Shown: positions 10,241 through 63,874, counted from the first letter of the stretch. The stretch is DNA of 64,000 nucleotides from Candidatus Magasanikiibacteriota bacterium (GCA_023246755.1 JAHFHU010000002.1:3702-67701); one strand, 5' to 3'. The notes: a model not told the origin generated them from the letters alone. Translations and numbers: made by a program.

Positions 10241-10264
10241 AACCACGGCTCAAACCCATCCCAA

Positions 10265-10556: not shown

Positions 10557-10562
10557 ATCTTC

Positions 10563-11020
10563 GTGCTCATGAAAGCTTGATCGAGTTACGGTCCGAGAGA
10601 CGCTGTAACTCTCGCTCTCATCACACACCCTATAACGACTTCCTCATCGGAAGATCAAAATAGTTCTTTTGCACGAGTTCCACCACATAGTTCTTTGCCC
10701 GCGCATTCGTCCATCGTTCACATTTCAAATCGTTCCACTTTTCTTTCAACGAGAAAGGCGTGAATACTGGTAGAACGGTCTTTCGAGACAGTTCCCACTC
10801 ACGATCCGGTGTTACCTCGCAAAATTATGAGGTCAATTAACACCACGCAGAAGGATTAGATGCGAACAACAACAACACAACCCGCAAGATCGATATCCTC
10901 GAGGTCGTCTCACGATGTACCTCAAGTAGTGTCCGTCTTGCACAAGGCTCGTGGCTCACCGATTAACTACATTGTTTCGGGTGATTGCCCGAGCCTTTGC
11001 TATTTTATACAGGTTTTTTA
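10563..11020 (+). ncRNA. candidate large ORF-less transcript (unassigned ncRNA or long leader)
   Basis: ~460 nt downstream of a consensus promoter with no ORF >60 aa. Local hairpins (GAGTTAC…GTAACTC, CTTCC-TCATC-GGAAG). It ends in a weak T-rich hairpin before the dksA promoter. Confidence 0.25.
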
Positions 11021-32575: not shown

Positions 32576-33691
32576 ATGAAATTCACGTGTACTAAAGAAA
32601 ATTTTTTACAAGGAATTCAAGCAGTCTCTTCGATTACCGGAAAGCAAGTTCACTTACCGATACTCAACAACATTTTATTATTAGCAGAACCAACAGGTCT
32701 CAAAGCGATCGGAACAAATCTGGAACTTTCTATCGTTGCAACAATTCGTGGTAAGGTTGAGATTGCCGGAACCTTTACTGTTCCTGCTAAGATGCTCGTT
32801 GAATATATTTCGCTGCTTCCGAATGAAGCGCATATCGATTGTGAATTAGATGGCGTTGAGTTGATTTTGAAATCAGGTCGTCAGCGTACGAAAATGAAGG
32901 GCGCGCCTGCGACGGATTTCCCCGCTGTGCCGCCGGTTGAAAAAAACAATGAACTTGTTTTTCCCGCGGATCGTTTAAAGCGCGCGCTTCAACGTGTACT
33001 CATGTCGGTTTCGCACAGTGAAGTTCGACCAGAGCTGCAAGGTGTTCTGCTTTTTTCAGAAAATACGGATCAGTTGCGTGCGACGCTTGCTTCAACCGAT
33101 AGCTACCGTCTTTCGGAAGTGCACGTTGAATTACTCAATCAATCGAGTGTCGCGGTGCGCGTTATTATTCCGCAAAAAGCTGCACAGGAAATCCACAGAC
33201 TTCTCCCCAACTCAAATGAACCGACCGCTCTCGTGCTCGGCGAGGGTCAGATTTCATGTGTGATTGGCGACGTTCATCTTGTTTCGCGACTGATCGATGG
33301 GACTTATCCCGATTATCGACAGATTATCCCCAAGACATGGAATACTGAATTGAAAGCGCCTGTTGAAGAAACGCTCAAGGCGATTAAAGCCGCCTCACTT
33401 TTTGCAACACAGGGTGTGAGCGCGGTTTCGCTCGAGCTCAAACCAGCTTCGGAAATTCTCAACATCACATCCGCCTCAACGCAGGCTGGCGAACACTCGG
33501 CTGACATTTCGGTTGAAGGCGTCGGGGTTGATAATAAAGTTATTTTGAACCATCGTTTTTTGGTTGATGGGCTTTTGTCGGTCGACGATGAGCGGGTAAT
33601 TTTAAAAGTGGTGAATAGTGAGTCGCCGTGTTTGCTGCAACCGGAAAAAACAGATGATTATTTATATATCATCATGCCGATTCGCCAATAA
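32576..33691 (+). CDS. dnaN: DNA polymerase III subunit beta (sliding clamp)
   Basis: Three-domain clamp pattern. Immediately downstream of dnaA. Confidence 0.9.
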   Translation: MKFTCTKENFLQGIQAVSSITGKQVHLPILNNILLLAEPTGLKAIGTNLELSIVATIRGKVEIAGTFTVPAKMLVEYISLLPNEAHIDCELDGVELILKSGRQRTKMKGAPATDFPAVPPVEKNNELVFPADRLKRALQRVLMSVSHSEVRPELQGVLLFSENTDQLRATLASTDSYRLSEVHVELLNQSSVAVRVIIPQKAAQEIHRLLPNSNEPTALVLGEGQISCVIGDVHLVSRLIDGTYPDYRQIIPKTWNTELKAPVEETLKAIKAASLFATQGVSAVSLELKPASEILNITSASTQAGEHSADISVEGVGVDNKVILNHRFLVDGLLSVDDERVILKVVNSESPCLLQPEKTDDYLYIIMPIRQ

Positions 33692-48585: not shown

Positions 48586-51500
48586 ATGTCTCTCCGGCAG
48601 TGGTTCAATAGAAAAAACCCTTTAAATAAAAAGAAAAATAAGACCGCCAGCACCAATTTTAATGATGCCGACGTTCTTTTTTATACACAAATAGATCCCG
48701 AAAAACCCCAATCTCTCGAAGAGAAATTCTGGGTAGTCGTTTTTGCGTGTGCTCTGGCCCTGTTTTTTTTGCCAATCATCTATCTCATACCGCGGATACA
48801 TGATTTAGTTAACGCAACCACATGGGTTACAACCGAAGATATAGAAACAACAGACGATGTGGGTGCATATGGCAACATCGTTCTTAATTCGTCTAATCTC
48901 CCTGATGCGGTTTTTTACGATAAAACAAATCGAAGAGTTCGATGGGCAACACGCTCTGCTGGCGGAACATGGGCGGCAGAATCGATTGAAACACTGCCAA
49001 ATGAGTACAATTTTGGCAACACAAACAACATAAAAATGGGTATAGCCATCGATCCGACCGATAATAAGCCATCGGTGCTTTACTGTAATTATGGCTACGG
49101 CGGCGGCGCTGCAAATTCGCAATTGCGTTTTGCACATCGGGTTGGCGGCGGCGCAGGGAATTGCGGTACGAGCAATAATTGGACATGTTCGAGCGTGGGC
49201 GACATAAGTGATTCGTGTGGTATGCGCATGGTTACGCTTGGGTTCCACGTGACGAGCAGTCAGCCGATCGCATCATATTCGCAAGACAGTGGCGCGGGTA
49301 CTCGCATAAAATACGCTGAGTACGACGGTTCCGCATGGACAATAACGACGATTGCGGGGAATGAGTCAACAGGATATTATGACCTACAACAAACCGCACT
49401 TTCGTTTACAACAAGCAGCGAGCCGGTTATTTTTTTCCCGCGTCAATACGACGGCTCAATCGATCAGGTTATGTATTCCTATCGCCGCGCATCGGATTGG
49501 GCGTGGCAAACACCGGTCGTCGTCGATAGCGTTCGACATATAAATGCACCCGCAACATTCATGTCGGCAACAAAAGACAGTAACGGGTATATTTGGGCCA
49601 CATATTCAACGGCATACGGCGGACTTAGCTACGCAAAACTTATCGGCGGCACGCTCACGACCTCGACGCTTGATCAAACCGTCAGCAGCACATGGAATTC
49701 GATCGCGATTATAAACAGTAATCCGGCGGTTGCGTGGTATGATTCGACCAACAGCGATCTTAAATATTCAATATACACTGCTGGTATATGGACGGGAGAA
49801 ACGGTTTCTTCAACGGGCGATGTTGGGCAATATGCCGCGCTTGCCTCAACGGGCGGCCTGCCATTTATTTCTTACTACGACCGCACGAACGGCAACGCCA
49901 GCTTCATTTCGGCAACAGCGTTTAACACGGCGCCAACTGCCCCGACCGTGCCATATTCGAACTCAACAACTGCGCAATCTGGTTTAGCTAATCCAACGAA
50001 TCTTGCAACAAGCACGCCGGCATTTTCCGCCCTGTTTAATGACGCAGATGGGAGTGACACGGGCCAGAAGGCTGAAATTCAGGTGACAACGAGCACGGAT
50101 GGTTTTGCAACCGTCACGCACTGGGAGTCTGGTGCATCCGGTAACACCTATTCTCCAAACACAACAAATGGCGCTCGTTCAATTGATTTTGGCTACAATA
50201 ACTTCGGAAGCGCCGCAACAAAATCTATCAGTTTTCCGGACGACGGAACGGAGGGCGGCACCAACACCACGTATTATTGGCGAATTCGATTTTGGGATGC
50301 GAGTGTTGCGGGCACATGGTCGGCGACCGCAACATTTTCGATCTTGGATCTTCCCGCTGCGCCGTCATCACTCCTTGCGCCGTTAAGCGAAACAAGTGCT
50401 GTCGCAAGTTGGACGGATAATTCTTCGATTGAGCGCAGTTTTGCGCTCGCGCAATCAACGGACAACAGCACGTACACACACGCCGCAACATCATCGGCGA
50501 ATGTCGCAACCGCAACCGCGTCAACTTTGATTCCGAACACACTTTATTATTTTAAGGTTCGTGCGTACAATCTTGCGGGTTATTCATCCTATTCGACCGC
50601 AACGAGCGGCTACACACTTGCAAATATTCCGGCGACAGTGATGGCAAGTTCATCCGCGTACGATCGCGTGAGTCTTTCGTGGAGCGCAAATAGCAACTCA
50701 GCCGGAACCGAATATGATGTGTTGAATGTAACCGCGAGCACAAATTCTGGATTCGCTGCAGGAACAAACGCGACAATCACGGGCCTGCAGGGTGCAAAAT
50801 CATATACGTTTCAGGTTCGAGCTCGAAATTCGGCACTCATCAACACGAGCTATTCTTCCGTTGCGACAACGACCACGCTTCCGAACGATCCCGCGAGCCT
50901 CACCGCTACACAAAGCGGCACGTCGGTCGTGCTCGCGTGGAGCGCAAATGGTAATAGCGCCTCGGCGAATTATATTGTCGAAAATATCACAACCGGTCTG
51001 ACATCAGGCCTGATTAGCGCAACAACGTACACGTTTACCGGTTTGACCACCGGCTCAACATACCAATTTCGTGTTAAGGCATACAACAGTGATTCGATGG
51101 CGTCTGGTTATTCGGGCACCACATCCATCACGCTCACCGCGAGTTCTTCGGGGAGCGCGGGCGGGGCAGCGTCGCAAGGTCGCGCCGAACAACAGGCGCA
51201 GCAACAAGCGATCATCGCCGATGCGATGAGTGGAGCTTTTACCATTTCATCGATTGACAATGGCGTTACATCAAAAATGACGTCTTCGACGCAGGTGTAT
51301 CTGAATCTGACGTATTCTGCAAATGTTACCGACATGATGGTTTCAAATCAGCCCGGATTTGATGGTGAATCATGGATTAAGGCACAACAAAAGACGGCGT
51401 GGAATATTATTGGCGGAACAGGCACGCGCACCGTTTACGTTAAATTTCGAAGCAAAAAATTAAACACGAGCGACGTTTTTGCGCAATCAATCACACTCGA

Positions 51501-53889
51501 TCAGGTCGCGCCGGCGGTTCCAACGATCGCATCGCCGACGATGAATGAAAAATTAACCACTGAAAAAATTTCCTACAGTGGCACCGGAGAAAGTCAATCG
51601 CACATCATCCTCACTCTGCACAGCACGGTCAACGGAGTGACTGTCAGTCAATCGATCGGCGATGTTGTGGTCGATGAGCGTGGCGCATGGTCATACGATG
51701 CGCCAATTCCGCTTGCCACGGGCAACTATTCCGTATACGTGACTTCGTTCGACGCGGCGGGCAATAATGCAAAATCTGCGATGATTAGATTTTCGGTTGT
51801 TGATAATACGCCGCCGGCAACGCCCGACGTTTTGTTGCCCGAACAACATGGGGTTGTTGAGGGTGGTTTATTTTCCACCAATGGGTTCGCCGAGCCAAAT
51901 ACAAAAATTATCATTGTCCGCGACAATATTTTGACGTATCAGGCGGAAACACAACTCGATGGGACATGGAAATATCATTTTGTTGTGCCGCTCGGGGTTG
52001 GGACGCATTCGCTTGAATACACAGCAATTGACAGTTCAAGCAATCAGAGCGCCAAGCGAACCATTCTGTTTTCTGTGACCGGGCCCATCATAGCAGCGCC
52101 GATCATACCAGATCTGCCCATCGTTCAACCGCCAGCGTCGCCCTCACCAATTATTTCTCAAAAACCTCACAATCCAAAACCGGCTTTTTTTGATCAAACA
52201 GCAAGTGCACCAACAGGGAAATCAATCGCGGGTGGCACTGCAAATGTAAGTTCATCACCAGATTCACCAACAAATTCGACGTCGGACTCATCAGGCGCAG
52301 CCATCTCTGATGGAATTATTACGCTCGATCCGAAATCGCAAATTGACATTGTCGCGCAATCGTCGAACGAAAGCGTTTCGTCGGGAATTTTGAAGAACGC
52401 CGCCGCTGTCGTTAATGCAGCGTATGATCGGGCGCAGATCGTGGCGCGCCAAACGGCTGTTTCGGCAAAGCGAGCCGCACGTGTTGTTAAACAGGTTGCT
52501 GAAACTCCACAAGTGCAAGCCACCAATAAAATCGTCGTGGTTCCGACGACGTCGGCGATTGCGATTGCGTCGGTGGGTGGCGCGGTCAACAGTTCGCAAT
52601 ATTTGATTTATCTCAAATATTTGTTTACGCAACCATTTTCGTTGTTGCGGCGCCGGCGAAGAAAAGGGTGGGGGACGGTTTACAATGCATTGACGAAGTT
52701 GCCGGTTGATCTTGCGGTTGTACGCATTGTTGATGCGAAATCAAACCGCGTAGTTCAGTCGCGCGTAACGGATCGCATGGGCCGGTATCAATTTTTTGTT
52801 CAACCCGGCGAATACGCGATTGAATCAACGAAGCAAGACTTTTCGTTTCCGCCGGTATATATGAAGGGCCGAACGGAAGATGGGCGCTATACGGATGTCT
52901 ATGCGGGTGGCGCGCTCGCGCTTGAACAGCCAACGGCCGTGCGATACAACATTCCGCTTGATCCGGCTGGGATGGAAAAGCCCGCGTCCCAGATTTTGCG
53001 TGAGGCGGCAAAAAAACGTTTTGCGCAAATTGCGAGTTTGGGTGGCGTAATTATGACCGGCGTTTCATTCGCGGTGACGCCAACTCCAATTGTGGGTGCG
53101 TTTTTGGTTGGACATATCGGTAGTTACTTTGTTTTTCGCCGTCTGGCTCTTGGAAAAAAGCCGAACAATTGGGGGGTTGTCTATGATGCAGAAACAAAAT
53201 TACCCGTTGCAAAGGCGATCGTGCGCATTTTTGACACGCAATACAACAAACTTCTTGAAACACAAGTGACCGATGACAAAGGTCGGTATGCGTTTTTAGT
53301 CGGTAAAAATACGTATTATGTGATGGCCGAACACCAAGGTCATCAAAAATTTGTTTCACAACCCGTTGAAATACGCGAGGATGTTGAGGGAAGCGCCGTC
53401 GCACCGGACGTTATGCTTAAAGTCGAATCGGTTCTCGTTCCAGAAACGCTCTCATCGGTCCCCGTAACGGAAACGCCGGCGATTGCGGAAGCCGTCTTGC
53501 CGAGCGCTGATTCGGTTCAGCCTCAACAGCAACCGGTAAGTTACGCACCAAAAGCAATTGTTCCGTTACATGTCGACGCAGCGTCGGATCTCAGTCCATC
53601 GATTCTTTTTAAAAAAATTTCGTCCGAAAATAATAATTCCACGCCTATCGCCGAGGCACTTGCGAGTAAAACACAACAAACCGAACAGTTCGTGGTGTTT
53701 AAAAAAATTGAGCAACAAGCATCGGCGCAGCGCAAAATCGCTCCACTCGCAATTGCACACACAAATACATCTGGTTTGTTAGCGCCCATTTCATTGGCGT
53801 CCCGAAAATTAATCATAACCGGCTTGCCGCATGATATTGATGAGTTGCCTGAGCTCATCAACGACGGAAATTTTTTGCCACAGCGATAA
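48586..53889 (+). CDS. giant (1767 aa) cell-surface protein with N-terminal TM anchor, FN3-like and Ig-like repeats, and two carboxypeptidase-regulatory-like domains
   Basis: TM helix at residues ~50-70. FN3-like segments (…YYFKVRAYNLAGYS…, …YQFRVKAYNSDS…). Big/Ig-like repeats. Two CarboxypepD_reg-like modules (…VRIVDAKSNRVVQSRVTDRMGRYQF…, …VRIFDTQYNKLLETQVTDDKGRYAF…). Confidence 0.7.
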   Translation: MSLRQWFNRKNPLNKKKNKTASTNFNDADVLFYTQIDPEKPQSLEEKFWVVVFACALALFFLPIIYLIPRIHDLVNATTWVTTEDIETTDDVGAYGNIVLNSSNLPDAVFYDKTNRRVRWATRSAGGTWAAESIETLPNEYNFGNTNNIKMGIAIDPTDNKPSVLYCNYGYGGGAANSQLRFAHRVGGGAGNCGTSNNWTCSSVGDISDSCGMRMVTLGFHVTSSQPIASYSQDSGAGTRIKYAEYDGSAWTITTIAGNESTGYYDLQQTALSFTTSSEPVIFFPRQYDGSIDQVMYSYRRASDWAWQTPVVVDSVRHINAPATFMSATKDSNGYIWATYSTAYGGLSYAKLIGGTLTTSTLDQTVSSTWNSIAIINSNPAVAWYDSTNSDLKYSIYTAGIWTGETVSSTGDVGQYAALASTGGLPFISYYDRTNGNASFISATAFNTAPTAPTVPYSNSTTAQSGLANPTNLATSTPAFSALFNDADGSDTGQKAEIQVTTSTDGFATVTHWESGASGNTYSPNTTNGARSIDFGYNNFGSAATKSISFPDDGTEGGTNTTYYWRIRFWDASVAGTWSATATFSILDLPAAPSSLLAPLSETSAVASWTDNSSIERSFALAQSTDNSTYTHAATSSANVATATASTLIPNTLYYFKVRAYNLAGYSSYSTATSGYTLANIPATVMASSSAYDRVSLSWSANSNSAGTEYDVLNVTASTNSGFAAGTNATITGLQGAKSYTFQVRARNSALINTSYSSVATTTTLPNDPASLTATQSGTSVVLAWSANGNSASANYIVENITTGLTSGLISATTYTFTGLTTGSTYQFRVKAYNSDSMASGYSGTTSITLTASSSGSAGGAASQGRAEQQAQQQAIIADAMSGAFTISSIDNGVTSKMTSSTQVYLNLTYSANVTDMMVSNQPGFDGESWIKAQQKTAWNIIGGTGTRTVYVKFRSKKLNTSDVFAQSITLDQVAPAVPTIASPTMNEKLTTEKISYSGTGESQSHIILTLHSTVNGVTVSQSIGDVVVDERGAWSYDAPIPLATGNYSVYVTSFDAAGNNAKSAMIRFSVVDNTPPATPDVLLPEQHGVVEGGLFSTNGFAEPNTKIIIVRDNILTYQAETQLDGTWKYHFVVPLGVGTHSLEYTAIDSSSNQSAKRTILFSVTGPIIAAPIIPDLPIVQPPASPSPIISQKPHNPKPAFFDQTASAPTGKSIAGGTANVSSSPDSPTNSTSDSSGAAISDGIITLDPKSQIDIVAQSSNESVSSGILKNAAAVVNAAYDRAQIVARQTAVSAKRAARVVKQVAETPQVQATNKIVVVPTTSAIAIASVGGAVNSSQYLIYLKYLFTQPFSLLRRRRRKGWGTVYNALTKLPVDLAVVRIVDAKSNRVVQSRVTDRMGRYQFFVQPGEYAIESTKQDFSFPPVYMKGRTEDGRYTDVYAGGALALEQPTAVRYNIPLDPAGMEKPASQILREAAKKRFAQIASLGGVIMTGVSFAVTPTPIVGAFLVGHIGSYFVFRRLALGKKPNNWGVVYDAETKLPVAKAIVRIFDTQYNKLLETQVTDDKGRYAFLVGKNTYYVMAEHQGHQKFVSQPVEIREDVEGSAVAPDVMLKVESVLVPETLSSVPVTETPAIAEAVLPSADSVQPQQQPVSYAPKAIVPLHVDAASDLSPSILFKKISSENNNSTPIAEALASKTQQTEQFVVFKKIEQQASAQRKIAPLAIAHTNTSGLLAPISLASRKLIITGLPHDIDELPELINDGNFLPQR

Positions 53890-54141: not shown

Positions 54142-55677
54142 ATGCAGTTCCTTACTAAGTGGTGCAAACATATGTGCACCGTACCCGCACGAGTATATTT
54201 CGTAGCATTTGTTTTTGCCCTCTCGACCGTTTACGTGTCGCAAGAGGTTGGCTCTGTTTTTGCGCAGAGCGTTGGTTCGGGTCCGATGCCGCCGCAGCCG
54301 ATGGGACCGCCACCAAATAACCAGATGGGTCCAAACCAGATGGGCGGGCAACAGGCCGGTGGTCCGCAAGGCGGCCAGTTCGGCAAAATGGATCAGGGCC
54401 AATTTGGTGGTCAGCCACAACAGCAACAGCCGATGCAGCAAGGCCCCAATCAAATGATGCCGCCGTTGAATGGCGGGCAGGGAATGCCACCAAGTCAAGG
54501 CGGTAAACCAGATTTTAATGGTGGACAGATGCAGTTTGGTCAACAGCCAATGCAAAAGATGGGAAAATTTGACAACAGCCAAATGGGTCCAAACCAGATG
54601 GGCGGGCAACAGGCCGGTGGTCCGCAAGGCGGCCAGTTCGGCAAAATGGATCAGGGCCAGTTTGGTGGTCAGCCACAACAGCAACAGCCGATGCAACCAC
54701 AACAGTTTCAGAACGATCAAAAACAGGGCGGCGTCATGGAAAAAGGACAGCACGAAGATTCAGACGCGCAGCAATCAAAAATGGAAGCGCAGCGCGCAGA
54801 GCAGATGAAAAAACAGTTTGCTCAAATGAAAAAGCAGTTTGGTCAGATGGGTTCTATGTTGAAAAAAGTTGAAGCGCGCGTAGCTGCTGTAGAAAAGCAG
54901 GGCGTAAAAGCTCCAACCGAACTTGCGGAAGCTCTCGCAAATGCAAAAATCGCGCTCGCAACGGTGCAGAACGCACAATCATTAGAAGATGATGGTGTGC
55001 AAGATGCGATGCAAGCGTTGCAAGAGAGCGGTCACACCTTGCAACAAGGTATGCAGCAACTTGAGATGCTTGGGCAAATGCCACAAATGTTAAAACAAGC
55101 TGCGTCAGAAATTAAAAAACTCGAAGCGTCATACACACGTTCACAGAAATTAGTGAGTCGCGCGAAAATCGATGTGTCAAGTCAGATGGCCGAATTTCGT
55201 AAGGCAATTGACACGATTAAAGCTGGCTACGCCAACGCGCAGCAACTCATCCAGAGTGGCGATGCGGAAGGCGCGAGCGAAGCGCTTAAAACAGATGTGT
55301 GGGATAATATGCAAGACGCATATCAGTATCCCGGCATGATCGAAGCGTTGAGCAATGTAAAAAAATATCTTACCAACTTCGACAAATTCATTGCGCGTGC
55401 CGCAAAGAGTAAGGCCGTTGGCGGAGACAGCGAAGCGAGCGCCGCGCTTCAGGACATGCGAACGAAAGTCGTTGAACTCAAGCAGTCAGCGACGCAAGCA
55501 ACAACAGATCCCGAAGAATTGAAATCCGCGATTAACGACATCTTTGAATTGCAATCAACGATTCAAGGTGTGTTGGGCACGAGCAATCCAATGAGTGCGC
55601 AATCGCGACAGAACGGAAATTCATCCTTTGACTTTTCAGCTTTTGGACAGGTGAACGATTCACAAGGGCAGCGGTAA
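54142..55677 (+). CDS. secreted low-complexity Q/G/P/M-rich repeat protein with coiled-coil C-terminal half
   Basis: Signal-peptide-like segment after an alternative ATG at 54172. A 38-aa unit (MGPNQMGGQQAGGPQGGQFGKMDQGQFGGQPQQQQPMQ) is duplicated. The C-terminal half is helical and K/E/Q-rich. Confidence 0.55.
   Translation: MQFLTKWCKHMCTVPARVYFVAFVFALSTVYVSQEVGSVFAQSVGSGPMPPQPMGPPPNNQMGPNQMGGQQAGGPQGGQFGKMDQGQFGGQPQQQQPMQQGPNQMMPPLNGGQGMPPSQGGKPDFNGGQMQFGQQPMQKMGKFDNSQMGPNQMGGQQAGGPQGGQFGKMDQGQFGGQPQQQQPMQPQQFQNDQKQGGVMEKGQHEDSDAQQSKMEAQRAEQMKKQFAQMKKQFGQMGSMLKKVEARVAAVEKQGVKAPTELAEALANAKIALATVQNAQSLEDDGVQDAMQALQESGHTLQQGMQQLEMLGQMPQMLKQAASEIKKLEASYTRSQKLVSRAKIDVSSQMAEFRKAIDTIKAGYANAQQLIQSGDAEGASEALKTDVWDNMQDAYQYPGMIEALSNVKKYLTNFDKFIARAAKSKAVGGDSEASAALQDMRTKVVELKQSATQATTDPEELKSAINDIFELQSTIQGVLGTSNPMSAQSRQNGNSSFDFSAFGQVNDSQGQR
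54325..54438 (+). repeat. intragenic direct repeat copy 1 (~114 nt)
   Basis: Near-identical (1-2 mismatches) to 54583-54696. Confidence 0.7.
54583..54696 (+). repeat. intragenic direct repeat copy 2 (~114 nt)
   Basis: Near-identical to 54325-54438. A recent in-frame duplication. Confidence 0.7.
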
Positions 55678-55748: not shown

Positions 55749-57146
55749 TTAAATTTGATCTATGGTCTCTATGAAAATTTGAGCAAGTTTTTTAGTTGTC
55801 GCGATTGATTCTGTTCCAACGGAAATGCGCAAAAATGGTTGCGTGTCCTTGTCAGCATGAAGCGCGGTTAGATAGACGCGTGTCGTGTCCATGCCAAAAC
55901 TGGTTCCCGCAACGAGATCGACGCGATGTTTTTTTGCTAGAGCAATTGCACGCCGGATGAATTTTTTGTACAGTACGATTTTTGATTGATGCGATTTTGG
56001 GGCAAGCACAAAAAAACTGCCGTGAAATTTTTTTGAGCACGTCCAATCATATCCTGTGTATGTTGGTAACCCCGGATACACGACGTGTGAGAACGGCGAT
56101 TTTTTTTGTACGCGCAGATGTTCGTCGATTATGGCCGTGAGATACGATGCGTTACGTTGCATGCGCAGTATTCGGTTTTCGAGCAGTGCGCGATTTGGTT
56201 CGGGGAGGGCGAGCACCGACGCATCCGGCATGATTGTTCCAAAATGCATCCGCCAAAGCAAAAGTCGGCATGATGAAATTGCAGATGTCCATATCACACC
56301 ACCGGTTACCCGATCCAAACCAAACTGATGATATTTGTTGAGACTTTCGAAAACAATCAGAGTAAGTTTGCTCGGAACGAGTGGCATGTCTTTGAGCGGT
56401 TGATACATGATGCTCAAGCCGGTATTGTCGAGCACGAGTGTTGTGGGGCGCGTGATTTCTTTTGCAAGGCGCGTGATGATGCGTGTCAGGTCAGGCATCG
56501 CAATCGTTTCAGTGTTGCAGAGCGAATCTAAAAAAATCACAGACGGCTGAATTTTTTTGACTGCCGCGAGCAGTGCATCGACATCCATTTCGTCAACGTA
56601 GGTTAAATGCTCGCGGCAAAAACTTTCAAGGATTAATTTGCTCTCAAAATATGTCGAGACTCCGGCGACAACCGGCCCGTCGATCATTCCATCAAGTTGG
56701 AGGCTCAACAAAATGGTGGTGAATGCCGACATCCCGCTTGATGTTACTAAAACATTTGGCGGCAAGCGCAGCGGTGCGTCGATGTACGACGCGCGAAACG
56801 CACGTTCGTATTGTTCGGCGTCAAGGTGGCGATCACGTTTGTAATCATTGATTGTGCCATCGATTTTTCCCGTTTGACTGCCGGCTTTTGAGTTGATTGA
56901 GTGCGCATACGAAGGGGACTGCCAATCTGTCGAGGCAAGAATTGCCGCAGTGATGCCTTGTAATTCGCGTAGTTTTTCCGCAGATGAATTATCAAAATCC
57001 TGTTCAATTTTTTGGTATGCTACGATGGTTTCATCTAAAATTTTTGATGAAATTTTGTTGTTTTTTTTAAAATTTTCGAGACGTCGAAGTGCGGATGTGC
57101 AGAGAAATAATAGTTCATCGCACTCACTTCGTGCGTTTTTCTCCAT
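55749..57146 (-). CDS. PLP-dependent Cys/Met-metabolism-family enzyme (cystathionine gamma-synthase/beta-lyase-like) with N-terminal extension
   Basis: SGMSA, the PLP-lysine region FESLNKY, and the C-terminal RISVGTE motif characteristic of the Cys_Met_Meta_PP family. Confidence 0.55.
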   Translation of the reverse strand: MEKNARSECDELLFLCTSALRRLENFKKNNKISSKILDETIVAYQKIEQDFDNSSAEKLRELQGITAAILASTDWQSPSYAHSINSKAGSQTGKIDGTINDYKRDRHLDAEQYERAFRASYIDAPLRLPPNVLVTSSGMSAFTTILLSLQLDGMIDGPVVAGVSTYFESKLILESFCREHLTYVDEMDVDALLAAVKKIQPSVIFLDSLCNTETIAMPDLTRIITRLAKEITRPTTLVLDNTGLSIMYQPLKDMPLVPSKLTLIVFESLNKYHQFGLDRVTGGVIWTSAISSCRLLLWRMHFGTIMPDASVLALPEPNRALLENRILRMQRNASYLTAIIDEHLRVQKKSPFSHVVYPGLPTYTGYDWTCSKKFHGSFFVLAPKSHQSKIVLYKKFIRRAIALAKKHRVDLVAGTSFGMDTTRVYLTALHADKDTQPFLRISVGTESIATTKKLAQIFIETIDQI

Positions 57147-57552
57147 ATAAAATTTTGATAGAAAATATACATCCGCCGATGCCGTCGAATAATAAATCGA
57201 ACATGGTGTCGGAGTTGTTCAGCTGGAAGTGCGTGTTGAAAAAATAGTCATGTAAGAATTCGTACCACTCCCACGCAACGCCAAAAAGCATGACGAATGA
57301 GATGAGCAAAACAATTTGTCCAAGCAGCGGAATTTTTTTCCACCAAATCAACGACGGCGTTGCGGAAACATATTGATGGAACATGTGGGCGATCGCGAGG
57401 CCGCCGAGTCCATGCATGAGATGATCGATGCGCGGTTCAAATGCATAGATACGATCCATGAATGGCGTTTGGTTAATTAAAAACAGCGCGACGGGCGCCC
57501 ACATGATAGAAATTATTTTTTTCATAGATTTTTTGATATACTGAATTCCCAT
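57124..57552 (-). CDS. small integral membrane protein (VanZ-like?)
   Basis: Four hydrophobic segments. Weak resemblance to VanZ-like proteins. Confidence 0.4.
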   Translation of the reverse strand: MGIQYIKKSMKKIISIMWAPVALFLINQTPFMDRIYAFEPRIDHLMHGLGGLAIAHMFHQYVSATPSLIWWKKIPLLGQIVLLISFVMLFGVAWEWYEFLHDYFFNTHFQLNNSDTMFDLLFDGIGGCIFSIKILYGEKRTK

Positions 57553-58690
57553 GACGAGTGAAACTTTTTTTGAAAAATTATCTGATGCTCTGTTGCAACC
57601 GCCCGCGCACGCGTGGGATGGTCCGCAACCTGGACTTTCCGCGCAAGCTGATGAGCGTTGTCGTTATTATTTTTCGCAAAACACAGGACGACTGGAGCGT
57701 ATTGTACAGCATGATGCGACGGGTGCGCCAGCCGTGCAAGTTCATTATCGACATGTTGACTCCGGCGAAATTTCCGGTCAATCGCGGGCGCGCGCATTTG
57801 AAATTGAGCGATGGAATGGTGACGCGTTTGTTTCCGAAGGGGTGGTCGCACAAGACGGCCGTGTGATTCGGACGCACGCGCTTCCGCGCACGATGCTCAC
57901 CGAGCATGGAAAACAGGAGCCTATCCCGCGCGAGTCGGATATTTTTATCACACCATCCGGCGAGGTTGTTCGACTTTCGTCGCAAGGGACTTTTTTCGCA
58001 TCACCACGCGCTGCATATTTGGGTCGCGCAACAATTTTTAACGCAGCGCATCCGTTTGTCGTTAAAACACCATCGGGTGAGCATGAACTTTCCGTTGATT
58101 GTCGGGACACGGTGATTGATGTTGAAGGGAATGTGTTTGAATTTAAGTCGGAAGGTTTGGTTGCGATCGGAGAGCTTGTCATTCCCGAGTTAGATCACGC
58201 GGCGGATCAGGTGGGCACGCAGCATCTCGTTCATGATTTTTTTACGCTTTCGCTTGCGGATAACGCAGTTACCGTCGATTTTCATGACGCGAAAATTAAT
58301 GAAATGCTGGAGCGGCCGTTGCATCCGATTGGCGGGCGACACCCGTTTGTTCACGATGCGACGCCGGAACTTGTTGATATACACGGCAGCACGCTCGGTG
58401 AGGAGCGGTTACGCGAAGTTGAGCGCGCGGCGCTTGAGCTCGGGCTTGTGAGTTTTGCGCTTCGGAATGAGACGCGACGGCCTGCGCGCGCGGCGTTTTT
58501 GAAAGCGCAGCACGCGCTCGAAGATCGGTTGTGGCATCGGATTGATCGGCTCGAGGAGCTCGTCGGGATGGCGCGGCACACGCTCGTGAACCCGACGCAA
58601 ATTCGTGCGTGGATTGACCGCGCAGCCGAACATCCGCACGAAGCTTTGCTCGCGCTCAAAGCACATCAATCGTATGTTGCAGCTCGATAA
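57551..58690 (+). CDS. hypothetical protein (GC-rich module, ~62% GC)
   Basis: 379-aa ORF with no recognised motif. Composition is clearly distinct from its neighbours. Confidence 0.45.
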   Translation: MTSETFFEKLSDALLQPPAHAWDGPQPGLSAQADERCRYYFSQNTGRLERIVQHDATGAPAVQVHYRHVDSGEISGQSRARAFEIERWNGDAFVSEGVVAQDGRVIRTHALPRTMLTEHGKQEPIPRESDIFITPSGEVVRLSSQGTFFASPRAAYLGRATIFNAAHPFVVKTPSGEHELSVDCRDTVIDVEGNVFEFKSEGLVAIGELVIPELDHAADQVGTQHLVHDFFTLSLADNAVTVDFHDAKINEMLERPLHPIGGRHPFVHDATPELVDIHGSTLGEERLREVERAALELGLVSFALRNETRRPARAAFLKAQHALEDRLWHRIDRLEELVGMARHTLVNPTQIRAWIDRAAEHPHEALLALKAHQSYVAAR

Positions 58691-59639
58691 ACTCGCGGCG
58701 GAATTTTTGGACCATCTTGAGATCGAAAAAAATCGTTCGCTCCTCACGCGGCGGAATTACGAGTTATATTTGCGGCGATTTGTTGATTTTATCAAGCGTG
58801 CGTACAAAAAAAATAATCCCGACGCGATCACATTTGACGCGGTGCGTGCCTATCGGTTGTGGCTGCATCGGTTTGTCGACGCGCAGGGGAATGCGTTGTC
58901 AGCAGCGACACAAAATTATCATCTGATTGCGCTGCGGTCGCTTTTGAAATATTTATCAAAGCGCGAAATTAAATCACTTGCGGCCGAGCGCGTTGAGTTG
59001 GGCAAAATGCCGGAGCGGCACGTTTCGTTTTTATCCGGTGACGAACTTGCCCGGTTTTTGAACGCGCCGCTGCACGCGGATCAAAGCGAGTCATTGGCCG
59101 CGCGCGACAAAGCGATTCTTGAGTTGTTGTTTTCGACGGGTTTGCGTGTGTCGGAGCTCGTTGGTTTGAAGCGCGACGATGTTGAGTTGTCACGCGGAGA
59201 AATTGGCGTTGTTGGAAAGGGGCGCAAACGGCGTGTGGTGTTTGTATCCGATGAGGCGCGCCAGTGGGTGAAAAAATATTTGGGGCTGCGGCGCGACATG
59301 AGCCCATTTTTGTTCGCGAATCAGGATCGTGCGGCGGCAACACGCGAGAAGAAAAAATCGGGGAGCGCTGAAGCTGTTGAAGGTTTGACGCCACGCTCGG
59401 TGCAACGCATGGTTGAAAAATATGCGCGCGAGGCGGGGATTATGAAGACCGTGACGCCGCACGTGCTCCGCCATTCATTCGCGACGGATTTGTTGCACAA
59501 TGGCGCGGACATCCGCTCCGTGCAAGTCATGCTCGGCCACTCGTCAATCACGACGACGCAAGTTTACACACACGTCACGGATCCACAGCTCAAAAAAATT
59601 CATCAGAAATTTCATCATCGGGGGCAGGCGGGGGATTAA
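58674..59639 (+). CDS. tyrosine site-specific recombinase (XerC/XerD/integrase family)
   Basis: The catalytic region contains the C-terminal RHSFATDLL…GADIRSVQVMLGHSSITTTQVYTHV with the conserved R-H-R-Y residues. N-terminal core-binding domain. GC-rich like the upstream gene. Confidence 0.85.
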   Translation: MLQLDKLAAEFLDHLEIEKNRSLLTRRNYELYLRRFVDFIKRAYKKNNPDAITFDAVRAYRLWLHRFVDAQGNALSAATQNYHLIALRSLLKYLSKREIKSLAAERVELGKMPERHVSFLSGDELARFLNAPLHADQSESLAARDKAILELLFSTGLRVSELVGLKRDDVELSRGEIGVVGKGRKRRVVFVSDEARQWVKKYLGLRRDMSPFLFANQDRAAATREKKKSGSAEAVEGLTPRSVQRMVEKYAREAGIMKTVTPHVLRHSFATDLLHNGADIRSVQVMLGHSSITTTQVYTHVTDPQLKKIHQKFHHRGQAGD

Positions 59640-59704
59640 ATATCGGTTTTCCACAATTCATGCACATTGACAAAAGTTTCAGGCTATGGAACCCAGTGGG
59701 GTAT

Positions 59705-60169
59705 ATGTCTGAAAAAAATTTTGATGCGTGGTTTGTGCTTAAAAAAAGAGTGCATGACAGACATGCTTTTTCATCGCGTCCGGGTGGTGATCGATTTTTT
59801 CAGGTGCGCGATGTATGGTTTTGTTCAATTGGTGAAAATATTGGCCACGAACAGGATGGAAAGCACACGTACTTTGAGCGCCCTGTTTTGATTGTTCAAA
59901 AATTTAATCACGATATGTTTTGGGGTGTTCCACTCACCAGCAATCTTAAACAAGGCCGGTATTGCCTTGAGATTTTTTTTGCTGGTCGATACAGCTCAGC
60001 CATGCATTCGCAGTTGCGTTTATGGGACGCGCGCAGATTGTTGCGAAAAATCGATCGTATTTCTGAGAGTGATCACCGGCAGATTACAGAAAAAATAATT
60101 TCTATTTTAAAATTAAGCGGCTCCCCGCATGAGCGAGGAGCCTCGGAGCCCGAAGGCGTAGTGAAGTAA
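59705..60169 (+). CDS. MazF/PemK-like endoribonuclease toxin-family protein, paralog 1 (with C-terminal extension)
   Basis: FQVRDVWFCSIGENIGHEQDGK…ERPVLIVQK…GVPLTS follows the PemK/MazF/Kid pattern GEIWxVxLDPxxGxEQxGxRPxLIV…PxTS. Confidence 0.5.
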   Translation: MSEKNFDAWFVLKKRVHDRHAFSSRPGGDRFFQVRDVWFCSIGENIGHEQDGKHTYFERPVLIVQKFNHDMFWGVPLTSNLKQGRYCLEIFFAGRYSSAMHSQLRLWDARRLLRKIDRISESDHRQITEKIISILKLSGSPHERGASEPEGVVK

Positions 60170-60199
60170 CTATAGAATATTTTAAATTAGCTGTCAAAT

Positions 60200-60586
60200 A
60201 TGTCTGAAAAAAATTTTGATGCGTGGAACGAATACAAAAAAGAACTCGACGCGCACAGACGAAACCTTATTTTTCGGCCGGGTGAAGTTTGGTTTTGCTC
60301 AATCGGTGAAAATATTGGGCGCGAACAAAATGGGAAAAATAATTTGTTTGAGCGACCGATTTTAATCATAAAAAAATTCAATCGTGAGATGTTTTGGGGT
60401 GCGCCACTCACCTCGAAAGAGCATAGTGGCTCTTGGTATTATAATTTTTTTTACGACGGCATTTTAGAAACTGTTATTCTGGTCCAACTTCGTTTAGTTG
60501 ATATTGGCCGATTACAACGAAAATTGTTTCGGATAAATGTGGTTCACCGACTTGCGATTCGTGAAAAACTCAAGAACTTGTTATAA
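60200..60586 (+). CDS. MazF/PemK-like endoribonuclease toxin-family protein, paralog 2
   Basis: RPGEVWFCSIGENIGREQNGK…ERPILIIKK…GAPLTS. N-terminal 20 aa nearly identical to paralog 1 (MSEKNFDAW…). Confidence 0.5.
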   Translation: MSEKNFDAWNEYKKELDAHRRNLIFRPGEVWFCSIGENIGREQNGKNNLFERPILIIKKFNREMFWGAPLTSKEHSGSWYYNFFYDGILETVILVQLRLVDIGRLQRKLFRINVVHRLAIREKLKNLL

Positions 60587-60592
60587 CAAAAA

Positions 60593-60611
60593 ATCCCCGA
60601 AGGGATTTTTT
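60593..60611. terminator. intrinsic terminator (bidirectional flanks)
   Basis: AAAAAA-ATCCC-cgaa-GGGAT-TTTTTTG. Confidence 0.5.
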
Positions 60612-60749
60612 GTAAGTCATTCGGCTGCTTGCGCAGCCTCGGATGTGGACGAATCCACGATAGTAACGCAAGTATAAAACACGAGGCATGTTCTGTCAAA
60701 CGCCGAAATTTGAATTCACCCGAACAAGTGCTATACTTGCCTCTATAAT

Positions 60750-61634
60750 ATGAAAATTAGAAAAGCAATTATTCCGGTAGCGGGTTACGGGACGCGTTTT
60801 CTTCCGGCCACAAAGGCGCAACCAAAAGAAATGTTGCCAATTGTTGATAAACCGACGGTGCAATACGTGGTCGAGGAAATCGTTGCTGCGGGCATTACGG
60901 ATATTATTTTTGTGACGCGTCGCGGTAACCACATGCTTGAAGACCATTTTGACAGCAATATTGAACTCGAGCGCCAGCTTGAAGCGGCGGGGAAGCTCGA
61001 TCGTCTCAAACTCGTGCGCGACATCAACCACCTCGCACATTTTTACTACGTTCGTCAAACGCGTGACATGCCCTATGGCAACGGTACGCCGCTGCTTGCC
61101 GCGAAAGAATTGATCGGCGACGAGCCGTTCATCTATGTGTTTCCGGACGACGTAGTTGATTCGGCGGTGAGCGCGACGAAACAGCTCGTGCAGGCATACG
61201 AAAAACTCGATGATCCTGCCGCAATCATCGGTGTCCAGGAAATGCCGGATGAGGTTCTTCATCTGTATGGCGTGGTTAAGCCGAAAAAGGGCGCGCAAAA
61301 AATCGCAGGCGCGATGCGCGTTGAATCTGTGATCGAAAAACCCGCGGCCGGCACGGCGCCGAGCAATCTTGCGCAGTTTGGTCGGTTCGTTTTGACGCCC
61401 GACGTGATTCGCGCACTTGAGAAACAGCCGCTCGGCAAGGATAATGAGCTTTGGTTGACCGACGCTTTGATGGCTGTCGCAAAAAAGAAACCGGTCTACG
61501 CAAAAACTATCGACGGCACATGGTATACGACCGGTGATCCATTCAACTATCTCAAAGCAACGATTGCGTTTGGTCTCAAACATCCCAAAGTGGGAAAAGA
61601 GTTTACGCAATATTTGCGCGATTTGAAAATTTAA
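60750..61634 (+). CDS. galU: UTP--glucose-1-phosphate uridylyltransferase
   Basis: IPVAGYGTRFLPATKAQPKEMLPIVDKP N-terminal signature, and VEKP…G(R)FV motif. Confidence 0.9.
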   Translation: MKIRKAIIPVAGYGTRFLPATKAQPKEMLPIVDKPTVQYVVEEIVAAGITDIIFVTRRGNHMLEDHFDSNIELERQLEAAGKLDRLKLVRDINHLAHFYYVRQTRDMPYGNGTPLLAAKELIGDEPFIYVFPDDVVDSAVSATKQLVQAYEKLDDPAAIIGVQEMPDEVLHLYGVVKPKKGAQKIAGAMRVESVIEKPAAGTAPSNLAQFGRFVLTPDVIRALEKQPLGKDNELWLTDALMAVAKKKPVYAKTIDGTWYTTGDPFNYLKATIAFGLKHPKVGKEFTQYLRDLKI

Positions 61635-61637
61635 AAT

Positions 61638-63065
61638 ATGTTCAAGCGATCTTTGACAATCAGTTTACTCTTCGCAACGCTCGTCTTGACCGGCGCGGGA
61701 TGTGGCGCCGCGGCCGCGCCTGCAGCTCCGGTTGCGAACACGGGGCCGGTGACGCTTCAATATTGGGGTGTGTTCACTGACACGGATGACATGGCGATTT
61801 TGATCAATGTTTTTCAGAAAAAACATCCGAATATTCAAATTCAGTATCGCAAATTTCGTCCCGAGGAGTATGAGCAAAAATTGCTTGAAGCGTTTGCTGA
61901 TGATCGCGGCCCGGATATTTTCAGTATTCACAGCACGTGGCTTCAAAAATATAAATCAAAATTGAGCCCGATGCCAACAAAGATCAGTTATCCGGTGTTT
62001 ACAAAAACAGGGAGCGGCATGAGTGAAAAAACAGTTGTTACATCCGAAGATCGCGCGGGGCTCACGCTCAAACAGATGCGCGATCAGTTTGTGCAGACCG
62101 TTGAAGAGGACACGATGGACGAAGCGGTTGCGACGTCAACGGTAAAATCGATTTTTGCGCTGCCATTTTTTGTCGACTCGCTCGCACTTTATTACAACAA
62201 AGATGTATTGGCTGAAAATGCGATTACAAAGCCCGCAAAAGATTGGGACGGCTTGCGAGTACATGCGGAGACACTCACCAAGCGAATTAATGACACGGAT
62301 ACGATTACGCAAGCTGCAGTTGCGCTCGGGACCGGAACGACGGTGCATCGCGCTGCTGATATTTTGTTGGCGCTCATGGCGCAAAACGGCGCTCGCATCA
62401 CGAACGAGAAAAATCAATTTACATTTAATGGTCCCGGCAATACGATTCCAAATAAAGACGAAGCGCTTCCGGGTGCGCGCGCGCTTGAGTTTTATCTTGA
62501 TTTCGCAAATCCAAATACAAAAGCATACAGCTGGAATGACCAACAGGGCGATGCGCTCAATGCGTTTGCCGACGGCAAGCTCACGTATTATTTTGGGTAT
62601 TCCTATGATATGTCCGTGATTCGTTCGCGAAATCCGCGATTGAATTTCGACGTGACCGCGCTTCCGCAGCTTGAAAAACCAAAAAATATCGCGAATTATT
62701 GGATGGAGGCGGTCGCAAATAAATCAAAGCGCAAAAATGAGGCGTGGTTGTTTGTGCTCGAATCTGCAACAAATAAAGAAGCGCTGACGAAATTTTTGAA
62801 AGCAACGGGTCGCGCTTCGGCACTTACTGAATTGATCGCGTCTGAAATTGACGATATCGATCTTGGGGTTTTTGCGAAACAAAATTTGACCGCGCACACA
62901 TGGTACCACGGTTCGGATAGCAAGGTGGCGGAACAAATTATCGCCGAATTAATTGATGCGACGCGCGCTGCACTTGCAAATCCGAGTGGTGAAAAAATTG
63001 ATGCGGAGCAGATTGTGCAAGAAGCGATTGATCGGGCGGCGAAGCGTCTCAACAACACACTATGA
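61638..63065 (+). CDS. extracellular solute-binding protein (SBP family 1, sugar-type) lipoprotein, with no adjacent permease genes
   Basis: Lipoprotein signal LVLTGAGC. SBP_bac_1-type fold pattern. Confidence 0.65.
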   Translation: MFKRSLTISLLFATLVLTGAGCGAAAAPAAPVANTGPVTLQYWGVFTDTDDMAILINVFQKKHPNIQIQYRKFRPEEYEQKLLEAFADDRGPDIFSIHSTWLQKYKSKLSPMPTKISYPVFTKTGSGMSEKTVVTSEDRAGLTLKQMRDQFVQTVEEDTMDEAVATSTVKSIFALPFFVDSLALYYNKDVLAENAITKPAKDWDGLRVHAETLTKRINDTDTITQAAVALGTGTTVHRAADILLALMAQNGARITNEKNQFTFNGPGNTIPNKDEALPGARALEFYLDFANPNTKAYSWNDQQGDALNAFADGKLTYYFGYSYDMSVIRSRNPRLNFDVTALPQLEKPKNIANYWMEAVANKSKRKNEAWLFVLESATNKEALTKFLKATGRASALTELIASEIDDIDLGVFAKQNLTAHTWYHGSDSKVAEQIIAELIDATRAALANPSGEKIDAEQIVQEAIDRAAKRLNNTL

Positions 63066-63874
63066 CATTTATTTCCCGCTGGTTCATGAGCGCCGCCGTC
63101 ACGATGGTCATGATGAGCATGTTTATCGCGACGCCACTCGTTGCGCACGGCGCCGGATTGTTACCCGAACCAACAGGGAAGTGTCCCGAGAACTATCAAA
63201 ATGGAACGCAAGCGGATTTAAGCACGCCGTGCAAAGATGGTGGAGAGCGTGATTATGCGCTTGATGATATTAAATCGTTTCTCGCAATTATTGGCAACAC
63301 ATTGCTCGGCGTTTCCGGCGCGATCGTTTTATTTTGCTTTGTGCTCGGTGGATTTTTCTGGCTTGCGTCCGCGGGCAACGAAAAAATGGTCAGTCGCGGG
63401 AAAACACTCATTTCGAGCGCGGTGATTGGCCTCATCATTATTTTTACCGCATACACACTCGTCGTATTTGGGGTTAAAGAATTGACCGGCGAGCGAGCCG
63501 CTGAATTTATTCCTGCTCCACAAAATTCATCAACAGGCGGCGGCGCAAAAGCGGCCGGAGTTATCAAAGGTTCTATTTCAAAACCACCGTCGGGCATGGA
63601 GCCAACTGCGGTTTGTGCTGCAATCAGTGGCACCTGTATGTCCGCGAATAAATGTACGACCGCATATTCGATTTTGGGCGCATGCGCGTCAATTGGTTCG
63701 TCGCAACAAGAATGCTGTATGGAAATTGACCAAGGATCTCAGAAAACAGATTGCGGGAAAATCGGTGGTACATGCCAAGAAGAGAGCGTGACGTGCGCGG
63801 GTGCAGTTGTCAAAGGGTTGTGCAACGGAAAAGGGCAGGGGGCAAGCGTTCAGTGCTGCATCAAAACTTCGTAG
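63062..63874 (+). CDS. TrbC/VirB2-like pilin-type protein fused to a C-terminal Cys-rich domain
   Basis: Signal peptide, then two hydrophobic helices separated by a short polar loop (the VirB2/TrbC topology), then ~95 aa with ~15 Cys (CAAISGTCMSANKC…CCMEID…CGKIGGTCQEESVTCAGAVVKGLCNG…QCCIK). Confidence 0.4.
   Translation: MTFISRWFMSAAVTMVMMSMFIATPLVAHGAGLLPEPTGKCPENYQNGTQADLSTPCKDGGERDYALDDIKSFLAIIGNTLLGVSGAIVLFCFVLGGFFWLASAGNEKMVSRGKTLISSAVIGLIIIFTAYTLVVFGVKELTGERAAEFIPAPQNSSTGGGAKAAGVIKGSISKPPSGMEPTAVCAAISGTCMSANKCTTAYSILGACASIGSSQQECCMEIDQGSQKTDCGKIGGTCQEESVTCAGAVVKGLCNGKGQGASVQCCIKTS

Follow-up and report, generated by a model that had tools for sequence, protein, structure and literature searches.

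Tandem MazF/PemK-like toxin genes with predicted convergent small RNA genes as putative antitoxins in a Candidatus Magasanikiibacteriota chromosome

Two adjacent open reading frames (ORFs) of a Candidatus Magasanikiibacteriota bacterium encode proteins resembling the MazF/PemK toxins, and they raise the question of what may keep these toxins in check and whether they belong to the same genetic element as the tyrosine recombinase (Xer) and the 379-residue protein encoded immediately upstream. The locus lies in a stretch of 64,000 nucleotides (the window; GCA_023246755.1, JAHFHU010000002.1:3702-67701), from whose first letter all positions given here are counted. An earlier note on this DNA had proposed that the four genes form an integrated mobile element or defence island, the toxins acting alone or having a non-canonical antitoxin. 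We observed that each toxin gene carries at its 3' end a predicted small RNA (sRNA) gene in convergent orientation, and we consider it probable that this small RNA is the antitoxin of the MazF-like toxin, the locus being composed of two tandem toxin–RNA-antitoxin cassettes.

Profile comparisons place both small proteins in the MazF/PemK toxin family. Hidden Markov model (HMM) searches with PF02452 and PF00589, suggested by the earlier note, matched the small proteins and the recombinase, respectively; with PF02452, toxin 1 scored 37.5 bits and toxin 2 25.3 bits (gathering score 23.1). The two proteins are 48% identical in amino acid sequence, their genes reaching 76% nucleotide identity in the best core stretch, in agreement with the proposal that they are paralogs with a MazF/PemK core. 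The family profile matches solved MazF/EndoA/PemK chains at E=1e-6. The AlphaFold2 (AF2) model of toxin 1 has low confidence (predicted local distance difference test, pLDDT, 56), because the alignment is shallow; its top 45 matches in the PDB are all MazF or Kid, with template modelling (TM) scores of 0.57-0.64 (target-normalised). The catalytic arginine (FERP) is invariant and the PL(T/S)S motif is conserved in both paralogs and in their relatives, the reference catalytic residues being R29/T52 in Escherichia coli and R25/T48 in Bacillus subtilis. Two additions set the subfamily apart from the MazF proteins of E. coli and B. subtilis: a helix at the N-terminus, F-D-x-W-N-x-x-K-K, and five inserted residues (GK…F) ahead of the catalytic arginine. 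By homology, both MazF-like proteins may be expected to be toxic and to have endoribonuclease activity. We also noticed a perfect 29-nt repeat (59703-59731 and 60198-60226), which spans the start of both toxin genes from 2 nt ahead of the ATG to the ninth codon; such identity in otherwise diverged paralogs suggests recent gene conversion or a constraint, at the RNA level, on the translation-initiation region.

The subfamily is large and widespread. When 1.84 billion representatives were searched with an HMM built from the two window paralogs and ten relatives, 1,958 clusters at the 50% identity level reached E<=1e-10. In species-representative genomes we counted at least 528 loci, most of them in CPR/Patescibacteria (CPR, candidate phyla radiation), other hosts being, by the labels of metagenome-assembled genomes (MAGs), Rickettsiales, Gammaproteobacteria, Bdellovibrionales, Verrucomicrobiota, Omnitrophota, Caldilineaceae and Saprospiraceae. 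Searches with tblastn also revealed members on plasmids of Campylobacter, Helicobacter and Nitratiruptor, including pVir of Campylobacter jejuni 81-176; these plasmid members are annotated as 'type II … PemK/MazF family toxin', yet no antitoxin gene lies alongside. Phage carriage was limited to one IMG/VR locus and some Campylobacter prophages.

No conserved protein antitoxin is present at the window cassettes or at 64 related loci. As the earlier note had observed, no credible antitoxin ORF precedes either toxin gene (gaps of 65 and 30 nt), and the small ORFs detected in the window are artefacts over the RNA genes, none being usable as an antitoxin. When ORFs of at least 35 residues within 700 nt of the toxin gene were clustered over the 64 related loci, no cluster was common to more than 3 of them. 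A type II system, recognised by an adjacent antitoxin gene, was therefore set aside, the gaps being empty and no neighbour recurrent. The 379-residue protein, which had been put forward as a possible antitoxin, is ruled out by its distribution: it is present in relatives without MazF-like genes, and is absent from 80 MazF-like loci. Tandem Repeats Finder (TRF) detected no ToxI-like tandem repeat array.

What does accompany the toxin genes is a conserved element 3' of the toxin core, visible in essentially all of the 80 genome loci. At 16 loci the tblastn alignments continued 'in frame' beyond the toxin stop codon, into sequences such as KPPCGGFSEAEA or ISEPEG. Read on the toxin strand, the element comprises an A-rich stretch, a GC-rich hairpin of variable sequence in which complementarity is kept, (T)CTCGGAG, a short hairpin, AnTTTGTA, and then …TATAGCA… and TGTCAA. 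The opposite strand reads as a full gene: TTGACA, 17 nt, TAnnnT, ~7 nt to the start, (A)AAU, and an RNA body formed by a UUCG-loop hairpin, a UCCGAG linker ((CA)UCCGAG), a hairpin usually closed by a GNRA loop and a U-run. Across 24 aligned loci, TTGACA never varies and TAnnnT is conserved at the matching place; the CGAG of the linker is likewise invariant.

Two covariance models were built for this RNA, R1 (48 positions, 12 base pairs) from a seed of five real and two length-adjusted artificial sequences, and R2 solely from 50 real matches, and both give the same picture. All 50 matches at E<=2e-5 are opposite in strand to the toxin gene, and an adjacent convergent match is present at 57 of the 80 loci, while control loci without a MazF-like gene gave none. 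Covariation is strong, with 97% of the cells paired and 11 of the 12 pairs showing changes on both sides, a level reached by none of 500 shuffles and by no slid control. In the minus orientation, G-U pairs outnumber A-C pairs by 26 to 1, and therefore the transcript is taken to come from the strand opposite the toxin. Loops point the same way: UUCG occurs in 35 sequences and GAAA, GCAA or GUAA in 31, and only on the minus strand are these stable RNA tetraloops. Besides the G-U bias and the loop types, the weaker plus-strand fold of the window's first element (z=-2.4 vs -4.1) argued against a plus-strand RNA. A small peptide gene was also considered and rejected: the match lengths, sorted by their remainder on division by three, are distributed 23/9/18, which rules out a coding element; the window copy, moreover, lacks a start codon.

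The RNA corresponds to no catalogued family that we could find. In the window, only tRNAs pass the gathering scores of Rfam 15; nothing relevant, including the pemK motif RF02913, appeared at E<=10 in 59500-60750, nor at E<=1 in loci L014, L040, L056 and L001. Most of the remaining loci of the 80 carry, as judged by eye, a variant with a different linker. Such a variant, found 3' of the toxin at L023, L028, L029, L031, L036, L039, L041, L052, L054, L058, L068, L076, L084 and L085, in MAGs labelled Proteobacteria, Rickettsiales and similar, has CGUGUG or UCAGUG (toxin strand) as linker, a second hairpin of the GGC-UAAU-GCC type and then AAUUUGU, and is mostly missed by R1 and R2.

In the window, sRNA-1 (Table 1) lies inside the ORF of toxin 1, perfectly antisense to the 3' end of the gene. 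Its promoter (TTGACA at 60197-60192, 17 nt, TATAGT at 60174-60169) is wedged between the two toxin genes, the -10 box sharing bases with the toxin 1 stop codon and the -35 box ending 2 nt short of the toxin 2 ATG. The covariance match (60113-60162, minus strand) scores 31.9 bits with R1 and 38.7 bits with R2 (E=1.4e-12). The predicted RNA comprises a UUCG-loop 5' hairpin (60157-60148), the UCCGAG linker, a 10-bp hairpin (60142-60119), which is a terminator-like site on the minus strand, and a U-rich tail; the minimum free energy (MFE) is -26.3 kcal/mol (z=-4.1). Toxin 1 has lost the usual stop, and therefore its last 19 codons (…LSGSPHERGASEPEGVVK) are the antisense of sRNA-1, i.e. the translation of a conserved non-coding element of the opposite strand. 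The odd C-terminal tail common to toxin 1 and its closest relatives is explained in the same way, because the toxin ORF reads through the RNA gene.

The second copy is more divergent. Its body has a UUCG-loop hairpin (60658-60645), the linker CAUCCGAG and a GCAA-loop hairpin (60638-60623), with 15.9 bits in R2 (E=2e-6 in a 161-nt search) and 8.3 bits in R1, and its MFE is -33.3 kcal/mol (z=-5.1). The transcript probably extends to the terminator at 60586. The terminator that the earlier note had placed at the end of the module was recovered as a hairpin followed by a T-run (60586-60613), which is predicted to terminate both the toxin transcript on the plus strand and sRNA-2 on the minus strand. 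Within 59500-60800, no site looks more like a promoter than those of the two sRNAs. Pairing of the sRNAs with the shared 29-nt translation-initiation regions gave duplex energies no better than those of shuffled sequences.

Two further loci resemble the window in single traits. Among non-identical relatives, the nearest to toxin 1 (68% identity) is encoded in a different chromosomal context (L002, 10001-11492), where its gene immediately precedes one for a RhuM/Fic-domain protein and, as with toxin 1, continues through its own sRNA gene. In a Kaiserbacteria contig (L013, 25-3864), four MazF-like genes, two of them near-identical, lie within 4 kb, each with its own convergent sRNA match. Tandem cassettes thus recur elsewhere, with four toxin copies in L013 and two each in L048 and L073.

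A type I toxin–antitoxin system, cjrA/cjpT, has reportedly been described on C. jejuni pVir, by Shen and colleagues in Molecular Microbiology in 2016. Two later papers, citing that work, name cjrA as a type I antisense RNA antitoxin encoded on this plasmid (PMC7826846; PMC10470494). Table S12 of Dugar et al. (2013; PMC3656092) includes CJpv3, an RNA 77 nt long and encoded at 31119 to 31043 of the pVir minus strand, as detected by Northern blot, and the RNA was also verified there by differential RNA sequencing (dRNA-seq). We mapped its start six bases after a TATAAT box and its end at a hairpin five bases past the toxin stop codon; CJpv3 is convergent to the pVir PemK/MazF gene, and this layout matches that of the CPR element. 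The pVir protein shares the helix F-D-x-W-N-x-x-K-K, the stretch IG-x-N-IG-x-E-x-x-GK…F-x-RP and the PL(T/S)S motif; as in the window, no annotated protein antitoxin adjoins the toxin gene, and a convergent sRNA has its own promoter, two hairpins and, in addition, a terminal hairpin that abuts the toxin stop. The pVir RNA differs, however, in having neither the UUCG loop nor the UCCGAG linker and in its longer 5' part; the locus is borne by a plasmid of an AT-rich epsilonproteobacterium, whereas the window cassettes occupy a chromosomal slot of a CPR bacterium, and only in the window does toxin 1 read through the RNA gene and is the cassette tandemly duplicated. The small RNA gene on the opposite strand that overlaps the toxin transcript, by which type I systems are recognised, is present in silico, expression having been verified only for the Campylobacter counterpart. 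Apart from cjrA, searches of the literature yielded no account of a MazF–sRNA family, and the window cassettes appear to join a barely described kind known from one Campylobacter plasmid, with an uncatalogued RNA family.

Other known systems are less close. The type II MazEF, PemIK and Kis-Kid systems have in common with the window toxins the PF02452 domain, the predicted fold and the catalytic Arg and Thr/Ser, but they are without the extra N-terminal helix and the five-residue insertion before the catalytic Arg; conversely, neither the window nor the 64 related loci have a MazE/PemI-type gene, the partner being an RNA gene. Type III systems (ToxIN, CptIN, TenpIN) likewise pair an endoribonuclease toxin of the Kid/MazF-like class with a small structured RNA, but in the window there is no upstream repeat array, the RNA is single-copy, convergent and downstream, with its own promoter, and the toxin is a PF02452 protein with no ToxN Pfam match. 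In B. subtilis, txpA/RatA and bsrG/SR4 are convergent and overlap at their 3' ends, the sRNA having its own strong promoter and terminator; their toxins, however, are small membrane peptides rather than RNases of 128-154 residues, and the window RNA, unlike theirs, is conserved in sequence and structure across phyla. The Rfam pemK RNA motif (RF02913) is also a structured RNA tied to pemK genes, located upstream of them in Firmicutes, but it does not match the window element.

The reading that the small RNA is the antitoxin is preferred because a convergent RNA is near-universally linked to the toxin and no protein partner was found. Within it we lean towards antisense action over protein binding, mainly because of the published classification of the pVir system. 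A strong constitutive promoter would produce a compact and very stable RNA, with UUCG and GNRA-type loops, which would base-pair with the toxin mRNA towards its 3' end, where the two are complementary (in toxin 1, over the final ~50 nt of the coding sequence), and this pairing would trigger cleavage or decay of the duplex or block the completion of translation. Antisense pairing of such a kind is reported for the type I cjrA/cjpT system of pVir in papers that cite it (PMC7826846; PMC10470494). Should RNA synthesis stop, by loss of the cassette or transcription shut-off, the toxin would accumulate and cleave cellular RNA. Both the antitoxin function and this mode of neutralisation are proposed from comparative sequence analysis, and several observations weigh against them. 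An invariant CGAG linker and closed tetraloops are needless for a cis-antisense RNA, and such closed loops are poor for loop-loop pairing. The mRNA of toxin 2 may stop at the bidirectional terminator, which would leave only ~25 nt of complementarity and would fit protein binding better; moreover, sRNA-2 is a weak model match (15.9 bits). R1 and R2 do not detect the Campylobacter or Nitratiruptor RNAs, and therefore the likeness of the RNAs is one of shared layout only, and that cjrA is CJpv3, and cjpT the pVir PemK-like gene, we infer through the papers that cite them. It is conceivable, if rather doubtful, that the RNA neutralises the toxin protein directly, as in type III systems, antisense pairing being incidental. 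The single-stranded (C)CUCCGAG linker, held between rigid hairpins, would then lie in the RNA groove of the MazF dimer as a (slow or pseudo-) substrate, and RNA binding would be the role of the added N-terminal Lys/Trp helix and GK…F insertion. The CGAG and the UUCG/GNRA loops do persist across phyla, although at most loci the element is located outside the ORF, the RNA is accompanied by the N-terminal extension and the insertion, both missing from E. coli and B. subtilis MazF, the conserved part of sRNA-2 lies beyond the bidirectional terminator, and ToxN toxins are structurally related to Kid/MazF. Nevertheless, neither a ToxI-like repeat array nor a ToxN Pfam match is present, the RNA is perfectly complementary to the toxin 1 coding sequence, and the one homologous locus treated in the literature is classed, in the citing papers, as type I antisense. 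We give an equally tentative place to the broader idea that the N-extended MazF subfamily and its convergent sRNA constitute a phylum-spanning class in which a single-copy, promoter-bearing RNA binds the toxin directly; as part of it, the CCUCCGAG linker, which resembles the anti-Shine-Dalgarno CCUCC of 16S rRNA, could be a decoy for the toxin target. That the MazF-like proteins are true orphan RNases, acting alone with low toxicity or in housekeeping, and that the element is a terminator or an mRNA-stabilising 3' structure, is improbable. It would agree with the lack of a protein partner, with the ability of the sRNA-1 hairpin at 60142-60119 to act as a terminator and with the existence of solo MazF genes, e.g. 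in Myxococcus (PMC2701414), but a terminator needs no conserved TTGACA-N17-TAnnnT promoter, second hairpin or conserved linker, the excess of G-U over A-C pairs (26 vs 1) points to a transcript of the opposite strand, and the Campylobacter counterpart, as listed by Dugar et al., is an expressed 77-nt RNA.

The proposal that a single integrated mobile element or defence island occupies 57.5-60.6 kb, with an integrase, the 379-residue protein as accessory factor or antitoxin, and the toxins, we regard as hardly tenable; what stands of it is the presence of MazF/PemK toxins without a protein antitoxin, and its fallback idea of an RNA antitoxin fits the covarying convergent small RNA gene at the 3' end of each toxin gene and of nearly all its relatives. 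In favour of the proposal, the stretch beside xer does vary and in relatives carries cargo of nuclease or toxin type (e.g. PBECR1), and the cassettes are low in GC. The upstream genes, however, had been thought to have a GC content of 62-65%, sharply different from their neighbours, but measurement gives 54.4% for the 379-residue protein gene and 52.7% for xer, whereas the window as a whole has 47.6% and the adjacent genes have 50.5-50.7%; it is the MazF-like genes that deviate, with 43.4% (toxin 1) and 38.0% (toxin 2). Comparison with related genomes placed the recombinase at a syntenic chromosomal position, a finding named beforehand in the earlier note as one that would overturn its reading. 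In several independent Magasanikbacteria relatives the order is DUF2238 (minus strand), the 379-residue protein gene, xer, a variable stretch, a GalU-like gene, a solute-binding protein gene and genes resembling type IV secretion system (T4SS) pilins; the first two genes of the module overlap there by 11-17 nt, and xer keeps the same set of neighbours in L005-L008 and L010-L012. Nucleotide identity to these relatives through xer is 71-75% (BLASTN), similar to that of the flanking housekeeping genes. On these grounds, the 379-residue protein gene and xer are considered to be vertically inherited in Candidatus Magasanikbacteria, and, since both are syntenic and only the xer–galU stretch varies, the integrase is placed outside any mobile element. 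Moreover, neither the cassettes, nor the slot, nor the module as a whole proved to be flanked by convincing att-like sites or direct repeats; five proteins gave no match to the defence-system models of PADLOC-DB 2.0; and MazF-like cassettes occur elsewhere without an integrase or a 379-residue neighbour.

If the RNA is the partner of the toxin, the 'orphan' toxins of a large subfamily would be explained, Rfam would gain an uncatalogued RNA family with strong covariation, widespread in CPR/Patescibacteria and with variants in MAGs labelled Proteobacteria, Bdellovibrionales, Verrucomicrobiota and others, and the view that type I systems have a narrow phylogenetic range (PMC5367252) would need revision. 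Direct binding, if true, would amount to a type III-like mechanism with a type I gene layout, and thousands of 'type II PemK/MazF toxin' annotations would be mis-typed. In either case, the system is suited to comparing antisense and protein-binding neutralisation of a MazF-type RNase.

The slot itself is well delimited. BLASTN homology to L005 and L010 stops at 59618 and restarts at 60748 or 60730, at the start of galU, and the 1.1 kb in between have a GC content of 38-43%, vs 51-54% in the flanks. At the same place, L005-L007 carry a gene for a PBECR1 (barnase/EndoU/colicin-like) nuclease (10202-10588; in L007, 9183-9569), and L010 (5920-8291) carries a methyltransferase gene, a small ORF and a TrmB-like regulator gene. 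The slot adjoining xer has the appearance of a hotspot, its cargo being small toxin or accessory genes. The four ORFs of the module, including the 17-nt overlap of the first two, are as the earlier note had described them (Table 1), and the origin region that it had recognised is indeed within the window (dnaA 30823-32301, dnaN 32576-33691).

Table 1. Features of the toxin locus and its flanks, with positions in the window.
Feature	Position	Strand	Basis or remark
Conserved hypothetical protein, 379 aa	57551..58690	+	ORF; core chromosome, outside toxin cassettes
XerC/XerD-like tyrosine recombinase	58674..59639	+	PF00589, PF02899; syntenic chromosomal gene
Variable xer–galU slot with two putative toxin–RNA cassettes	59619..60747	.	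BLASTN homology break
MazF/PemK-like toxin 1, 154 aa, N-terminal helix extension	59705..60169	+	PF02452
sRNA-1, predicted, ~55-58 nt	60105..60162	-	Covariance models R1 and R2; start inferred from promoter position
sRNA-1 promoter, predicted	60169..60197	-	11/12 consensus matches
MazF/PemK-like toxin 2, 128 aa	60200..60586	+	PF02452
Predicted bidirectional terminator hairpin, A6-UCCC-CGAA-GGGA-U6	60586..60613	.	Both strands fold into a hairpin
sRNA-2 body, predicted, divergent copy	60614..60664	-	R2 full-length match 60617-60661(-)
sRNA-2 promoter, predicted, TTGACA-17-TATACT	60671..60699	-	11/12 consensus matches
GalU-like nucleotidyltransferase, conserved right flank of slot	60750..61634	+	PF00483 1e-26; syntenic in L005-L007, L010

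The recombinase has the SAM-like N-terminal and catalytic domains of its family (PF02899, and PF00589 at 4e-44), and the catalytic R..K..HxxR..H..Y residues can be read in the translation (GLRVSE, GKGRKRR, HVLRHS, LGHSS, QVYTHV). Over its full length it scores 242.3 bits with TIGR02224 (XerC; cut-off 335) and 236.6 bits with TIGR02225 (XerD; cut-off 330); both equivalog scores are below the cut-off, as expected for a deep-branching CPR lineage, and therefore we name it 'Xer-like'. It resembles the XerC/XerD recombinases of chromosome-dimer resolution in domain architecture, full-length match, catalytic residues and conserved chromosomal position, but differs from them in falling below the equivalog cut-offs, in lying ~27 kb from dnaA and in being always coupled to the 379-residue protein. 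No xer paralogue was found within the window. An integron integrase was rejected, as TIGR02249 gives 137 bits (cut-off 265) with the match split in two pieces, and so was an attC/gene-cassette reading, as the element after the toxins bears a promoter, has an RNA-type G-U bias and accompanies the toxin at integrase-free loci. The window recombinase should accordingly not be annotated as a phage or island integrase.

For the 379-residue protein we found no match in Pfam, NCBIfam or PADLOC. Its ten homologues are 47-57% identical, two of them named as Candidatus Magasanikbacteria, and its gene is directly upstream of xer, and overlaps it, at every locus whose contig includes the downstream gene. 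From this arrangement the gene is regarded as specific to the Magasanikbacteria lineage and translationally coupled to xer. The AF2 model (pLDDT 73) has a beta-rich N-terminal part and a C-terminal helical bundle, and comparison of the fold with the PDB gave no match (best TM <=0.16). An accessory role is suggested because the coupling to xer is constant, which makes the protein a candidate lineage-specific partner of Xer.

Some genes around the module were also noticed. Upstream, a giant surface-type protein of 1,767 residues (48586-53889) with fn3, Big_13 and MG3-like domains is syntenic in relatives, as are the T4SS-pilin-like small genes (63062-63874 onward) downstream of the solute-binding protein. 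A 511-residue protein (54142-55677), whose position is conserved in relatives, has no Pfam match; its N-terminal half is rich in Gln, Gly, Pro and Met, and an internal direct repeat, …GPNQMGGQQAGGPQGGQFGKMDQGQFGGQPQQQQPMQ…, is present twice. Between this protein and the module, on the minus strand, lies a divergent gene resembling the pyridoxal phosphate (PLP) enzymes of Cys/Met metabolism (55749-57146; PF01053, 58 bits, far below all NCBIfam equivalog cut-offs), which is also found in L010-L012 and, in L005-L007, is not at that place.

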